From: Dictyostelium discoideum
Taxonomy: Eukaryota
Direction of reading: 5' to 3'
DNA: 64,000 bases
NCBI GenBank assembly: GCA_000004695.1
Contig: CM000153.2
Span: 4,480,001-4,544,000, forward strand
Made by a program: the position numbers and the translations under genes
The notes under the pieces: generated by a model
What the model saw: only the letters and a program-made list of their open reading frames with translations
The model's database searches: none
What the model was told of the DNA's origin: nothing
In this document: positions 269-18,779 of the stretch, one piece after another
Position numbering within the stretch: position 1 is the first letter of the stretch
Layout: every line of letters begins with the position of its first letter

Positions 269-2353
269 TCAATTGTTAACAATGAATTCATTATAAGCTA
301 TAATTTCAAAAGTTCTTGGACCTTGTGGTAAATAAGGGAATGTAATATTGAACCCTTTTGGAATTGGACCAGTTGCAGTTAAACTCTTTTTGATTTGAAA
401 TTGTTCATTAATAGTTATAATTGATTTTGCCCAATTCTTTGGATTGTCTAATGTGAATGATGATGTAAAGAAACCAAGATTGTTACCATTTAAAAACAAT
501 GATTTGGTAACATTGTCATAGGATAAATTAAATTCAAGGTTTGTACAATTTTGTAAATTATTAATATCTAAATTTGTAAATTTATTTCCACTAAAGATAG
601 CACTAGTCGATGGTTGCAAATAATTACAAACAACACATGATGGTGCTTGACCACCAATTAAATTATTACTAATGTCAAAATCAATTGAACACCAAGTTTC
701 ATCGATTTGTCCAGTTAATAAATTATCACTAAGATATAAAGAAATATCTTTTGAAAATAAATTTGATGGGAAACTTGTTGGAATAATACCACCCATTTTG
801 TTATTTCTTAAATAAAGGATACTTAGTTTTTTATTGAATAAATTGAAATTTATTTCATTAAAGTTACCATTTTCAAACTTGCTATAATTGGGTTTTTTTT
901 TTTTTTGATATAAAAAAAAAAAGATATTAAAAAATGTCCACTGAAATTGAATTTTTAAAGGTTAAATACTTACAAAAAGGTTAATGTTGATGGTAAAGCA
1001 GAGAATGGGAATTCACCATTTACATTGAAAATATTTCCTGCATTTGGAATATATCTTTTTTTTTTTTTTTTTCCAAAAGTTATTAATTAGTAAAAAATTA
1101 TCTGGATCGAAAGTAATGATCGAGGACTACTTACATAGAAACATCTAAACTTTCATTATAGTTGGATAAATCAATAAGGCCAAGTGGAGTGTCAATTTGG
1201 TAATTAATAGCACTATTTTTATAATTAAATTAAATTAGAATAAAGATAAGTATCAATATTATAATTTTTTAAAAAACTTACAAGCCAGTGTTTTTATTAG
1301 TACTAATTGGAATTGAAGCCAATGCCACTGGGAATGGGTAAACAACAGAATTTGATGATGTTAAAGAGAATGAAGTTACATTTGCATATGTTGAAAAAGC
1401 AGAGAATGAGTTTGAATCTGTGCCCGGTAAAAGGGTAAGTTGTCTATTGTTTTTATTATAAATAATTAGTAAATATTAATTATTGTATTGTATAAAAAAA
1501 CAAAAAAAAAAAAGAAAAACATACAATAATTCCATTAGAATATTATTCATTGATGGGATGAAATGGGTGTATGCAAAGAAGTATTCAAATGATGTCGACG
1601 TTTCAAGTAAATCATTGATATAATTGATTTTATATTTTGGATTTAAAGTTTGGGTGATGAGAGAAAACTTTTTAACATTTAAAAGACTTGAGAAATAAAT
1701 GTTTAATGGGCCAGAAAGATAAACCTTTGTACTTAAAACTGGAATTGTAATTGATTTCCCAACACCAATATCAACATCAAATATCGAAGAATTACCATTA
1801 ATTAAAGAAATCGATTTTAATGATTGAGGGAATAATCCAATTAAAAAGTTTTTAGAAACTTTGAATCCATCGATATTTCTAAAGAGAGATTTTAAATATT
1901 AATTTTGTTAGTATATATATATATATATATATAATTTTTTTTATTCTAATTTTAATATCTTACAATGTATTAATTGATGAAAAGCATTGAAAATCAGATG
2001 GTGAAATTAAATTTTTATTTGTTTGGGTCGCTCTAATATTTACAACATTTTGTGCATCACAATTAACCAAAGCATTCATAGGAGTTAATGGTGAATTACA
2101 AAAGTCGTAAAGAAGAGTGTTTGAATTATAATAAAATTCCTGGTTGACATTAGAAATTTTATTAAAGAAATTGAAAGTACATTGATCTGTAAAATTTAAA
2201 TTTAAGAATAAAAATTAGATAAAAAAAAAAAAAAAAAAAATTAAAATAAAATAAAATTAAATACTTACATTCTGATGAAGAAAGGGAAAATACATCCCCA
2301 ATAAAAAATAACAGAACTGACAAAACAATAGAGAAAAGTTTGACTAAATTCAT
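269..2353 (-). CDS. LRR receptor-like family member, copy E. Multi-exon, with a signal peptide and extracellular LRRs only. The reading frame stops before the EGF and TM region.
   Basis: The minus ATG at 2353 opens exon 1 (MNLVKLFSIVLSVLLFFIGDVFSLSSSEC), which reads as a signal peptide and ends at a GTAAGT donor near 2271. Further LRR exons lie at about 1960-2180, 1540-1880, 1290-1440, 1140-1210 and 960-1060. The terminal ORF 269..796 carries LRR motifs (LSDNLLTGQIDETWCSIDFDISNNLIGGQAPSCVVC...TGPIPKGFNITFPYLPQGPRTFEIIAYNEFI) and then a stop. In the paralogs the protein continues with IPQIDSVIRYSDYF and the EGF modules. A 3-prime exon beyond the window start cannot be excluded. Confidence 0.5.
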
Positions 2354-2590
2354 TTTTTTTTTTTTTTTTTTTTTTTTACTCAATAAATGAAATAAAAAAC
2401 TTTAAGAACAAAAAACAGAAAAAAAAAATTTTCAAAAAAAATAGAAAAAAAAAAAAAAAAAAAAAATACCCTTTATTTCGGAATAAAAAAAAAAAATTCA
2501 AGAAAAAATTTTAAAGAGACGAACCATCTAATCTCTCAAAAGGAATGAAAACATTTTTATTGATGTGATTTCTTTTGAAATACTTTAAAA

Positions 2591-15366: not shown

Positions 15367-18300
15367 TTAAAATTTAATATCTGTTTCTTCCAACTCTATG
15401 AAAATTTTTTTTTTATCTTTAAATGTGTTTCTAATTTTTACTTTGCATTGATTACTTTTAATAGCTAAAACTAAAAGGATTATTAAAATTACAGATGAAA
15501 TTAAAATTAATATTAAAATTAAAATATTTTTTCTGGAAAATTTTGGATTTTGAGCATCCTCCTTATTCTCACCATTAATACCATCGCTACTACTATTACT
15601 ACTATTACTACTACTACTACTACTACCATTATTAATACACACGCTAATACCATCTAAAGGTGTTGGGTTATAAAATCCACTCCAATGAACATTGTTTTGA
15701 ACAACTGATAATTCCAGATTATTATTATTATATTGGTAACAATAGATGTCTGACGGATAACATTCGACCATATAGTCAGAATCTGCAACAATGTCACATT
15801 CTATTTGATTTACTTTAATAGTTAGATCATTTCGAAAAATTTCACTACCAAACCAACCATTTAATATTAATAGATTACCAAGAGCACCTCGTTTAATATC
15901 TTGTGAGGTAACCATAGTATTAGGTATATTACAATTTGAAGCAGTCCATTGAATAGTACAATTACATTGACCAAATAAATAATCACAAATTCCACCATTA
16001 CTACAACCTAATCCTTCATTACATAGTCTACCACTACAATCATCGAATATTCTATTTTCATTACATTCGCATTTACCATTAATATTATTACAAATACCAC
16101 CACCATCATTATTACTACAATCTGATGAGCATTTCAATGGTTTTTGTTCACATTGATAACCTCTCCATTCATTTGAAAAACAATCACAAACTCCACTCTC
16201 TTTATTATATACACCTCCATTTTTTATATTACACACTGGAACTGGACAATTACTACCATTACAAATTTGATTCAATTTGAAATTAAAACTATTCGATACA
16301 TTCATAACTTGAACTAAACAATTAATTTCTTTATTATTATTTACAATACCACCACTATTACTACTACTTGTATCACTGTTACCATTATTATTATTGATGA
16401 TTTTATTTGAATTATAAAGATAACATTGAATTTGATTGAAATTACTTGATAATACTAAACAAGGTTCGTTTGAGATTAAAACATTGATAACCGTATTATT
16501 ATATGCAAAGTATTTACCATTGATAATGAAATAATCTGAATATCTAATAACTGAATCAATTTGTGGTATGAATTCATTATAAGCTGTAATTTCAAAAGTT
16601 CTTGAACCTTGTGGTAAATATGGAAATGTAATATTGAATCCTTTTGGCATTGGACCAGTTACTCTACTATTCTTTGTAATTTCAAATAATTTATTTCGAA
16701 TTTTTATATATTTTACCCATAAATTTGGATTATCAAATTTGAATGATTTACCAAAACCAAGATCTCTACCATATAGCATCAATGATTTAGTTTGATTATC
16801 ATATGATAGATTTAGTTCAATAGTAGTACAATCTTCTAAATGGTTAATATCTAAATTTGTGAATCTATTACCATTAACAATTGCACTAGTAATTGGATTA
16901 AGGTAATGACAAACTACACATGATGGTGCTTTACCACCAATTAAATTATTACTAATATCGAAAGTTATTGAACACCAACTATCATCCATTTCACCTGTTA
17001 ATTTATTATCATTTAAATATAACTCAAGTAAAACATCCATTGATTTAATAAAAGATGATGTTGGTAATTTACTGGTTAAACCATTAAATGATAAATCTAT
17101 TATATTTGTTTTCTCTTTGAAAATATTAAAATTGATTACACTTATATTTCCATTTTTCAATTGACTTTTGAAAAAAAAAAAATTAAAATAAAAAAAAAAT
17201 TAGTATTTTTATACTATTATTATATTTATCTTGTGTTTTAATTATTATTATTATTATTATTATTATTATTATTATTATTATTATTATTATTATTTTAAAA
17301 TAGTTACAATGTATTTAAATTTGGTGGTAACACTGAAAATGGAAAGTTACCATTAATATTGAATAAATTACCTGCATTTGTAATAAATCTGTTTTTTTTT
17401 TTTTTAAAAAAAAGGTAAATAAATTTAGGTTTAAAATATATATATATATATTAAAAACATACATTCCCTCCACCAAATCATCATCAGAGTAATTTGACAA
17501 GTCTATATAATCAATTGGTTTTTTAATTTGATACCCAATCGAACTATTATTTAATTAGTAAATAATAATAATTATTAGTAATAAATAATTAATAATTAAT
17601 AATACTTACAAACCAGTATTTTTATTAATAGAAATTGGTATTTTAGTTAAGGCTATTGGAAATGGGTAGATATGTGATGGATCTGCTGATTTCAAGTTTA
17701 AACTTCTAATTTTTGAATAAGTTGAAAAATTAGAAAACGAATTTTGGTCTGTACCTGGCAACAGAGTAAATTCTCTAAATTATATATAAATTTTTTATAT
17801 TAATATTATTTTGGAAATATATTATTTAAAAATTATTATAAATAAATAAAATTTAAATACATACAATAAACCACCTTTTAAGTTATCCATGGATGGTATA
17901 GAGTGTGTGTATATTGGAAAAATTCGAAAATATTGGTTATCTGTTATTATGGAATGATCGTTTATATCATTTATATAGTTGATTTTATATTTTGGTGCTA
18001 ATGTTTGAGTTGAGAGAGAAAAATCTATTACATTCAAAAGATTTGATAAATAAATATTTAGAGGTCCTGAAAGGAATAATTTCACTGAAAGATTATTGAA
18101 TGGTATTGTTTTATTTACACCACTATCAATATTAAATAATGTTGAATCACCATTAAGTAATGATACCATTTTCAATGATTCAGGAAATTTCCCTAATAAA
18201 AATTGATTTGTAACTCTGAATTTATCTATATTTCTATAATTTGATAAACATATGTTATTATTATTATTATTATTATTATTATTATTATTATTATTATAAT

Positions 18301-18779
18301 TATTATTATTATTATTATTATTATTATTATTAATATTTTATATTAACATACATTTTATTTAAAGCTGAATAACATTGAAAATGGTCAGGTGATAATAAAT
18401 TTGTTTTATTTTTATGTGTTGCTCTTATATGTCTAACCGTTCTAGAAGTTTCATTGCAATCAATCGAAAAATCGATTGGATAAATCGGGATACCACAAAA
18501 ATTATATCCATTGAATGAACTATCTATTCGATATTCAATAGATGCTTGTGATATTATATTTAATAGATTTATTGTACAATTATCTAAAAATAATAATAAT
18601 AATAATATTTTTTAAAAATACAATACATAAGTTAATATTAAAAAAATGATGATAATTACAATAAATAAATGAATGAATAAAAATAAAATACTACATTCTG
18701 ATTCAGTGAGTGGGTTTTGTGAATTTATTATTTTAATTGAAAATATAAATAATAAAAGTAAAATTAATATTCCTCTCAT
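15367..18779 (-). CDS. LRR-EGF-TM receptor-like family member, copy B. Intact. A near-identical tandem duplicate of copy A.
   Basis: The minus ATG at 18779 gives MRGILILLLLFIFSIKIINSQNPLTESEC. The exon pattern is the same as copy A: 18360-18600, 17900-18330, about 17640-17760, 17315-17500 and the terminal exon 15367 to about 17164. The 597-aa terminal ORF is about 97 percent identical to the 589-aa ORF of copy A. Introns and the upstream region (15060-15240 against 19040-19230) are also conserved. The spacing between copies is 3966 bp. Confidence 0.6.

Follow-up and report, generated by a model that had tools for sequence, protein, structure and literature searches.

Five tandem leucine-rich repeat genes of Dictyostelium discoideum as likely shortened relatives of ComC

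ComC of Dictyostelium discoideum (DDB_G0271692) is a protein of 1501 amino acids (aa) with 14 EGF domains, and is listed as carrying both a signal peptide and a transmembrane segment (S+T in Table 3 of PMC4931340). Its gene, comC, is one of the named cell-communication genes, and the mutant shows aberrant aggregation and streaming together with a non-cell-autonomous sporulation defect, rescued in chimeras (PMC4931340 supplement). Here we analyse a 64-kb window of D. discoideum chromosome 4 (G+C content ~20%), in which five homologous genes, c1 to c5, stand head to tail on the minus strand between positions 269 and 18779. ComC and the ComC-like proteins of group-4 dictyostelids have the same domain order as the array proteins, from the signal peptide to the single transmembrane helix, but ComC is considerably longer than the full-length array proteins (926-939 aa), of which c1 is a shorter companion without EGF or transmembrane regions; ComC also has a mutant phenotype, whereas the array genes have none on record. 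We consider it likely that the array is a set of tandem, shortened ComC-like genes that evolve by birth and death and by gene conversion, and that their products are ligand-binding surface or secreted proteins. The five genes are as follows.

c5 (DDB_G0286437, Q54LS4): 15367..18779, minus strand; intact gene of 7 exons encoding 937 aa (exons 18779-18692, 18583-18352, 18233-17865, 17774-17610, 17543-17463, 17388-17308, 17164-15367)
c4: 11401..14850, minus strand; intact gene of 7 exons encoding 926 aa (exons 14850-14763, 14612-14381, 14263-13895, 13788-13624, 13507-13436, 13333-13253, 13174-11401)
c3: 7639..11127, minus strand; gene of 7 exons and 939 codons with a 38-residue poly-Asn run (exons 11127-11031, 10939-10711, 10511-10122, 10018-9854, 9765-9688, 9604-9524, 9418-7639)
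c2: 2483..6110 (3' boundary approximate), minus strand; pseudogene in the AX4 lineage
c1 (DDB_G0286431, Q54LS9): 269..2353, minus strand; best model of 7 exons encoding 531 aa (exons 2353-2269, 2186-1964, 1878-1525, 1443-1282, 1212-1135, 1054-974, 881-269)

Two other described systems invite comparison. TgrB1 and TgrC1 (formerly LagB and LagC), the allorecognition proteins of D. discoideum, are, like the array proteins, type-I surface proteins of a multigene family with IPT/TIG-like beta-sandwiches. However, the ectodomain of Tgr proteins consists of repeated IPT/TIG domains and has no leucine-rich repeat (LRR) solenoid, whereas such a solenoid dominates the array proteins; the two are set apart here by this description of the Tgr proteins and not by a direct sequence comparison. 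The array genes also run head to tail, unlike the divergent ligand/receptor gene pair of the Tgr type. ComC is said, in work of Kibler et al. from 2003, to lie genetically upstream of lagC; a literature search pairing comC with lagC found nothing. The plant LRR receptors BRI1, MIK2 and RGFR1 share with the array proteins a single-pass layout with a large LRR ectodomain, and some array repeats carry the plant-like motif N-x-L-T/G-G-x-I-P. The plant receptors are nevertheless without beta-sandwich and EGF modules, and the array proteins are without a kinase domain; the likeness is that of the general LRR fold and is no proof of family membership.

Much closer are three other genes of chromosome 4 outside the window (DDB_G0286211, DDB_G0286217 and DDB_G0286329), the products of which have the same short architecture with LRR_ComC, TIG and EGF_TEN in 850-930 aa. 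Their identity to c5 is 48-50% across 84% of the last exon of that gene, and they make up a separate sub-family. This group sits ~100 gene identifiers from the array, and runs of consecutive locus tags among other strains (ACTFIW_013005 to 013009, ACTFIY_007020 to 007024) suggest a second tandem array.

Domain architecture and relation to ComC

The full-length members of the array are c5, c4, c3 and, in other lineages, c2, and by predicted topology they are type-I membrane glycoproteins. From the N-terminus, a signal peptide is followed by a Cys-containing N-cap, a ComC-type LRR solenoid, two beta-sandwiches, ~4 EGF modules, one more TIG-like beta-sandwich, a Ser/Asn-rich stalk, one transmembrane helix and a cytoplasmic tail. 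Hydropathy analysis places the only hydrophobic segments of c4 and c5 at the N-terminus and at ~873-911, and the transmembrane segment of c3 at ~897-931; the N-terminal segment of c3 is weaker in the window version, and c1 has a signal peptide only. An earlier note on this DNA, made from the letters alone, had described a signal-peptide exon, LRR exons, EGF-like Cys modules, a stalk, a transmembrane segment and a short tail, all of which are present in c3-c5. Its view of the locus as an evolving surface-receptor family likewise agrees with the type-I LRR/EGF/transmembrane architecture, the duplication and loss of copies, and the differences in copies between lineages described below. The cytoplasmic tails of c3-c5, at 8 to ~26 residues, contain no catalytic or any other Pfam domain; as a tail of this kind has no enzymatic domain, signalling or adhesion would need partner proteins.

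The Pfam family LRR_ComC (PF24141; 288 profile positions, curated cut-off 27 bits) matches c4 (P0001) with 55.5 bits, c5 with 51 bits and c1 with 45.2 bits, each match spanning nearly the whole profile. TIG is found once above threshold in each protein, at 23-27 bits against a cut-off of 20.9 (c4 26.1, c5 26.7). Other families of the ComC set score lower. Beta-sand_ComC_2nd (PF24143; cut-off 27 bits) reaches 22.3 bits in the last exon of c4 and 18.5 bits in c5, and is precomputed for the c1-type orthologues P0025 and P0026. Beta-sand_ComC_1st (PF24142) gave no Pfam match in the array proteins, though the region aligns with its counterpart in P0078, a D. citrinum protein considered below. EGF_TEN scores 28-35 bits, under its cut-off of 65, with ~4 EGF-like modules located at ~630-745 of c4, and LRR_1 is at or under threshold. 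The supersandwich family ComC_SSD (PF22933) has no match in c1, c3, c4, c5 or P0001/P0002 at E<=0.1, and scores 170-223 bits in the larger relatives P0078, P0139, P0044, P0042 and P0085.

The relation to ComC can be followed along the whole ectodomain by means of P0078, a protein of 1489 aa with LRR_ComC at 256 bits, Beta-sand_ComC_1st at 81 bits, Beta-sand_ComC_2nd at 84 bits and ComC_SSD at 171 bits. From this domain set and the length (1489 vs 1501 aa) we infer P0078 to be orthologous to D. discoideum comC. Residues 38-742 of c4 are colinear with residues 29-702 of P0078 (BLASTP E=1e-28, 24% identity), as are residues 5-742 with 5-702 using HMMER (E=2.3e-17). In addition, residues 646-825 of c4, which comprise the EGF modules and the membrane-proximal sandwich, align with residues 985-1150 of P0078, comprising its last EGF modules and TIG domain (E=4e-16). 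An exhaustive HMMER search retrieved 103 representative relatives at E<=1e-3; ten of them were looked up, and all ten are Dictyostelium proteins annotated as hypothetical or EGF-like, none bearing a Tgr name. The LRR_ComC matches and the colinearity with P0078 thus indicate that the array proteins are shortened ComC-like proteins, and on sequence grounds they form a branch of that family rather than an orphan one. The family had gone unrecognised in the earlier note, a view which the LRR_ComC scores of 45-55 bits and the colinearity of c4 with a ComC-type protein overturn. The remark that its function may be undescribed stands, as none of the gene identifiers of the array copies is mentioned in any paper found by literature search. 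DDB_G0286431 and DDB_G0286437, annotated as "hypothetical protein", as well as c3 and c4, can now be placed in the ComC-like family, and this gives a concrete hypothesis for them, namely surface or secreted LRR proteins in cell-cell communication.

An AlphaFold model of c4 has a predicted local distance difference test score (pLDDT) of 80-90 in the LRR solenoid and a helix at 874-898; the low-complexity stalk of ~45-50 residues between the last beta-sandwich and this transmembrane helix has a pLDDT below 50. Foldseek searches of the Protein Data Bank (PDB) matched the LRR part best to the plant receptors BRI1, MIK2 and RGFR1 (E ~1e-5), and also to LGR4/5 and internalin A, and the TIG-like parts to plexin and MET, all at low template modelling scores (TM-scores). 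The nearest solved folds are thus ligand-binding LRR ectodomains of the plant receptor, internalin, LGR and TLR types, and the short non-catalytic tails resemble those of receptor-like proteins; lineage-specific duplication and pseudogenisation are, moreover, typical of immune-type LRR families. One could therefore imagine the array proteins as receptors for environmental or microbial cues, with turnover driven by prey or pathogens and with c1 as a soluble decoy or opsonin-like binder. We think this improbable, since the LRR fold matches amount to generic LRR likeness (TM-scores 0.15-0.23, 12-16% identity), the sole characterised relative, ComC, works in development and not in feeding or defence, and no expression data tie the array genes to bacteria.

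The five copies and their history

Searches of the window with full-length homologues (tblastn) located the five copies and no further array copy elsewhere in it, and together with exact gene models they bear out the five head-to-tail, minus-strand paralogues first proposed. The outer coordinates 269 and 18779 coincide exactly with the stop codon of c1 and the start codon of c5, and the 597-, 589- and 537-aa open reading frames (ORFs) seen in the DNA correspond to the long final exons of c5, c4 and c3, respectively. Two annotated AX4 proteins, DDB_G0286431 (P0031) and DDB_G0286437 (P0032), map to the window at 100% identity, and on chromosome 4 the array spans from the one to the other. An independent, chromosome-level assembly from the same strain lineage (GCA_054883475.1; L004, with gene tags ACTFIT; hereafter the sister assembly) runs colinearly with window 24875..1395 and is 99.77% identical to it. 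Over these 23.5 kb the two differ by 14 substitutions and 11 indels, the latter mostly in homopolymers, and gene calls in the sister assembly give products of 937, 926 and 939 aa plus one merged c2+c1 product. As all five copies recur there at this identity and in an identical layout, the array is not an assembly artefact, a possibility that had been named beforehand as one that would undo the finding and that is hereby ruled out.

For comparisons between lineages we used the loci of ACTFIW (L001) and ACTFIR (L002), both labelled D. discoideum, and of D. citrinum (L003), all of which are syntenic with the window; they represent diverged lineages and not a population sample.

All introns of c5 are GT-AG, and its translation is identical to ACTFIT_005390 (P0033). 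The AX4 model DDB_G0286437, at 922 aa, equals c5 minus 45 nt of exon 7 (16672-16716), which encode VKYIKIRNKLFEITK. The homologous segment is kept in the 937-aa ACTFIT model and in the paralogue c4, and the extra intron is probably a prediction artefact. c4 also has GT-AG introns throughout and is identical to ACTFIT_005391 (P0001). An AX4 protein record for this intact gene was not found among the homologue hit lists and clusters, where only the ACTFIT prediction is present; c4 may have been flagged as a pseudogene or simply overlooked.

The two genes lie in adjacent copies of a longer segment.

Tandem duplication: 11398..19250, minus strand; two ~3.96-kb units, 11398-15297 and 15364-19250

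Each unit consists of one gene and ~450 bp of upstream sequence, and self-comparison with blastn gives 88% identity over 4049 columns. The proteins c4 and c5 are identical at 856 of 926 residues (92%), with 0.034 synonymous (dS) and 0.037 nonsynonymous (dN) substitutions per site. They had been called two near-identical intact copies, of which description "intact" holds and "near-identical", at 92%, does not. ACTFIW and ACTFIR have a single orthologous c4/5-type gene at the position where AX4 has two, and the dS of 0.034 between c4 and c5 is well under the AX4-ACTFIW dS of 0.10; hence the duplication arose in the AX4 lineage, and c4 and c5 are the products of a ~3.96-kb tandem event there. Derived codon changes number 46 in c5 (38 of them replacements) and 14 in c4 (12 replacements), and c5 has thus evolved faster. 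D. citrinum has its own c4/5-type pair of 946 and 936 aa (L003 6190-13887), 99.7% identical in the EGF segment and only 90.5% upstream of it, which suggests that the same gene has duplicated again in a second species, or else that gene conversion has kept an old pair alike.

The only decayed member of the array is c2. Its exon 2 bears a 438-bp insertion and a 19-bp deletion, and its last exon a ~176-bp deletion, in-frame stops and frameshifts, leaving the transmembrane region out of frame.

c2 insertion: 5337..5774, minus strand; 438 bp, with the 7-bp target-site duplication AGCTGTT on either side (5775-5781 and 5330-5336)

The insertion is present in the sister assembly and missing from ACTFIW and ACTFIR, where AGCTGTT occurs once, and both deletions are likewise missing from these two. 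Furthermore, the c2 orthologue of ACTFIW reconstructs as an intact protein of 932 aa with signal peptide, transmembrane helix and tail. We conclude that c2 died in the AX4 lineage, where it was disabled by the insertion of a mobile element and by indels; the previous description of a frameshifted, insertion-hit copy is borne out by the frameshifts, the stops, the two deletions and the insertion with its target-site duplication. The insert looks like a non-autonomous mobile element: a single AGCTGTT in the uninterrupted orthologues and its duplication around the insert are as expected for transposition. It has weak terminal inverted repeats and a fold z-score of -2.5. No second copy was seen in the window or the compared loci, and the termini are not diagnostic of a transposon family.

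For c3, one splice site deserves attention. In the window its intron-1 donor reads GCATGC (GC, not GT), with no alternative GT ahead of an in-frame stop, while every other c3 splice site is canonical. The donor is GTATGT in the ACTFIT assembly, where a 939-aa gene is called, and in the orthologues of L001, L002 and L003. The site falls within a cluster of differences between the two assemblies.

Substitution cluster: 10535..11225; 9 substitutions and 1 indel relative to the sister assembly

This stretch of ~700 bp holds 9 of the 14 substitutions that separate the window from the sister assembly, with G/C in the window and T/A in the sister assembly each time. Among them are both T-to-C changes that abolish the c3 donor and two altered signal-peptide codons, and ACTFIW agrees with ACTFIT at the four sites of the cluster that were checked. 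The stretch is probably a low-quality patch of the window assembly, and c3 is then probably intact in the organism; such a patch hiding the gene would also explain why an AX4 protein for c3 was not found among the homologue hit lists and clusters. We had entertained c3 as a young, splice-dead pseudogene, and downgraded this candidate because the clustered G/C changes are absent from the sister assembly and the checked outgroup sites agree with the latter. c3 had been noted as a copy with repeat expansions, which is correct for its 38-residue poly-Asn run; the GC donor of the window, probably a sequencing error, has to be added to that description. The run is encoded by an (AAT)n tract in exon 7 (window 7790-8070) with 38 consecutive Asn in AX4 and ACTFIT, and the ACTFIW orthologue has ~10 Asn there, interrupted by Lys. 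Given this shorter run, the expansion took place in the AX4 lineage; it affects the stalk, between the last beta-sandwich strands.

The remaining copy, c1, is a short one. Its ORF comprises a signal peptide and the LRR domain and ends inside beta-sandwich 2, with neither EGF modules nor a transmembrane segment, and the protein is therefore predicted to be secreted. The 531-aa model has GT-AG introns throughout and is 91% identical to ACTFIW_012890, whereas the annotated 472-aa AX4 model uses a 266-nt intron and leaves out all of exon 5 together with portions of exons 4, 6 and 7; judged by the orthologues, the 531-aa model fits c1 much better. In D. discoideum lineages the orthologues are 524-547 aa long, and in D. 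citrinum and D. dimigraforme 605-608 aa, the latter likewise without EGF or transmembrane regions. Compared with ACTFIR, c1 has a ratio of dN to dS (omega) of 0.44 (P=0.0016), and compared with D. citrinum one of 0.37 (P=2.5e-6). By these sequence comparisons c1 is best described as an old, conserved short form under purifying selection. A decaying truncation is ruled out by the full 7-exon ORF, by omega of ~0.4 and by the short form being common to strains and species. It was thus correct to call c1 truncated, in that it lacks EGF and transmembrane regions, but not to count its 531 codons as decaying, and the picture of five copies in different states of decay reduces to c2. From the former c2 stop to the c1 start there are only ~130 bp (window ~2483-2353), unusually short for a c1 promoter, and gene predictions fuse c2 with c1 in both ACTFIT (1210 aa, L004 18728-23440) and ACTFIR (1250 aa, L002 14076-19775). 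For the annotation, the gains from these models are an intact c4, a probably intact c3, the 531-aa model of c1 and a doubtful 45-nt intron in DDB_G0286437.

Sequence exchange among the copies

A block of 255 nt, already singled out in the earlier note as strongly conserved, is present in c2-c5 and partly in c1, and encodes the second beta-sandwich (TIG-like) domain.

Conserved block: c4 12403..12657, c5 16393-16647, c3 8656-8910, c2 3518-3772, c1 partial ~281-361; minus strand

Within D. discoideum the paralogues c2-c5 of both lineages are 97-99.6% identical over the block and the four D. citrinum paralogues 95-98%, while D. discoideum and D. citrinum are 90-93% identical to each other. In the sequences flanking the block the pattern is reversed: orthologues pair there (c3 with ACTFIW c3 at 96%, with its D. 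citrinum counterpart CIT_c at 85%), and paralogues are only 60-80% identical. Moreover, species-specific residues in the block (D/N, TV/SI, E/Q) are common to all paralogues of a species, and dS between c3 and c4 drops from 0.6-1.6 to ~0.12 across it. The block is under strong purifying selection as well (dN ~0.007). An embedded nucleotide-level element, or purifying selection alone, is ruled out as an explanation by the normal divergence between species combined with homogenisation within them. As read from these alignments, the block is a gene-conversion tract in concerted evolution within each species, and a segment of ~255 nt has been homogenised among all paralogues in each.

Exchange has gone further than the block. 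In the EGF segment, c2 and c3 share 99.1% identity, and a second tract lies in c5.

Second conversion tract: 16237..16370 (approximate), ~130-150 nt, minus strand; c5 linker between beta-sandwich 2 and EGF1

In the alignment this linker of c5 is identical to AX4 c2 and unlike c4 and the orthologues, and of the 12 substitutions derived in c5 within codons 604-648, 10 agree with c2. Since the state shared by the c5 linker and c2 is the ancestral c2/c3 type, the transfer would have run from c2 into c5, and sequence thus appears to have passed from a pseudogene into a live gene. More generally, 31 of 68 c5-derived substitutions match another paralogue, vs 6 of 21 for c4, and those of c5 are concentrated in codons 25-45 and 604-648. 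Patches have been swapped between copies outside the block as well, namely between c2 and c3 in the EGF region and, as it appears, from c2 into the linker of c5. The locus is a compact example of birth-and-death evolution with concerted evolution, in which one domain is homogenised while its flanks diverge.

These exchanges allow a bolder proposal, to which we give little credence, namely that the array is a modular recognition system with the conversion-homogenised beta-sandwich 2 as a docking module, diversifying LRR and N-cap surfaces, c2 as a donor reservoir and c1 as a competitor. New specificities would then arise through local duplication and through patches from neighbouring copies, the c2 pseudogene included, in a manner akin to the pseudogene-templated diversification of some antigen or receptor families. 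Secreted c1 would compete for the same ligand, which could aid the discrimination of partners or prey.

Selection and possible roles of the array

Two genes upstream of the array served for calibration.

Prefoldin gene: exons at 22996-23699
Phosphatidylinositol 4-kinase-like (PI4-kinase-like) gene: 26469-29321

Between AX4 and ACTFIW, c3, c4 and c5 have dS of 0.088-0.115 and omega of 0.25-0.48, and between-lineage omega is significantly below 1 for c1, c3, c4 and c5 (P from 1e-9 to 1e-3). In the flank (window 22996-28400), the same comparison gives dS of 0.15-0.17 for the PI4-kinase-like exon, with dN = 0 in its catalytic part, and dS of 0.033 for prefoldin (161 codons). As dS of the array is not above that of the PI4-kinase-like flank, the divergence of ~10% is lineage background and not hyper-polymorphism of the locus, which this calibration rules out: ACTFIW and ACTFIR are simply a diverged lineage. 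A dS of 0.15-0.17 is far above what is expected within D. discoideum, and suggests that the two are a deeply diverged lineage or cryptic species.

The young pair behaves differently between its own members. Region by region, the c4-c5 comparison gives omega values of 1.3-1.8 in the N-cap, the LRR, beta-sandwich 1 and the tail, none of them significantly above 1 (P = 0.3-0.6). Positive selection is not demonstrable at such P values, and conversion has brought in part of the c5 divergence; the present comparisons do not tell relaxed constraint on the pair from diversifying selection.

With the above in hand, we return to the view of the array as tandem, shortened ComC-like genes. The ectodomain of their products would bind an extracellular or cell-surface ligand via the LRR surface, and signalling or adhesion would proceed via partner proteins, as is presumed for ComC in developmental intercellular communication; c1 might serve as a soluble binder or competitor. 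By analogy with ComC, we infer that the array proteins may have a role in intercellular communication.

Several points weigh against this view. Function is not readily transferred from ComC, with its ~14 EGF domains and supersandwich domain, to array proteins with ~4 EGF modules and no supersandwich, and the identity between a ComC-type and an array protein is only ~24%. c3 has no LRR_ComC match in Pfam at E<=0.1, though its identity of 54-56% to c4 across the whole protein makes it homologous all the same. With a mean pLDDT of 67, the c4 structure model is of no more than moderate quality beyond the LRR. Omega between c4 and c5 over their full length is 1.08, indistinguishable from neutrality, and one or both of these young duplicates could be drifting and not functional. 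Lastly, the literature search found no expression, localisation or mutant data for the array genes, so that the functional statements made here draw on homology.

Would the same observations suit an allorecognition or kin-discrimination locus, with polymorphic LRR determinants of self and non-self under balancing or diversifying selection and a role like that of TgrB1/TgrC1? The earlier note had hinted at self/non-self discrimination, and had proposed a test for differences in copy number or presence between strains. Such differences do exist in the assemblies compared, with one c4/5-type gene and an intact c2 outside the AX4 lineage, and such variation in copy number and integrity fits the idea, as do the restriction of the surface-protein family to social amoebae, the concentration of c4/c5 replacements in the N-cap, LRR and beta-sandwich 1 (regional omega 1.3-1.8) and the capacity of gene conversion, a pseudogene donor included, to make mosaic alleles. 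We nevertheless regard allorecognition as quite unlikely, because dS of the array (0.09-0.11) is not above that of the flanking PI4-kinase-like gene, between-lineage omega is significantly below 1, no region has omega significantly above 1, and the genes stand head to tail and not as a divergently transcribed ligand/receptor pair; the comparison is one of diverged lineages and not of a true population sample. The hint of self/non-self discrimination is accordingly not upheld by these measures.

Very unlikely is a largely dispensable family drifting to loss, with c2 dead, c1 truncated, c3 splice-defective and c4/c5 neutral, for although c2 is a clear pseudogene in AX4, c4-c5 omega is neutral-like, the window c3 is without a canonical intron-1 donor and the AX4 protein set is without c3 and c4, ORFs of 926-939 codons stay intact in an AT-rich genome, purifying selection between lineages holds for c1, c3, c4 and c5, the short c1 reading frame stays open in three lineages or more, ACTFIW has an intact c2, and the c3 donor defect sits inside a cluster of probable errors and is not shared by the sister assembly. 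For the shortened ComC-like genes that we favour, the behaviour of the array is unsurprising in a tandem surface-protein family and does not make it a new kind of system.

A large palindrome (6599-7313) lies between c3 and c2, its 229-nt arms (6599-6827 and 7085-7313) being 94% complementary. It bears small ORFs, of 75 aa on the minus strand and of 92 aa on the plus strand (7281-7559), for which no Pfam match was found. In ACTFIR, the predicted gene model of the c3 orthologue (P0005) wrongly takes in one arm of the palindrome as a 3' exon (residues 851-891).

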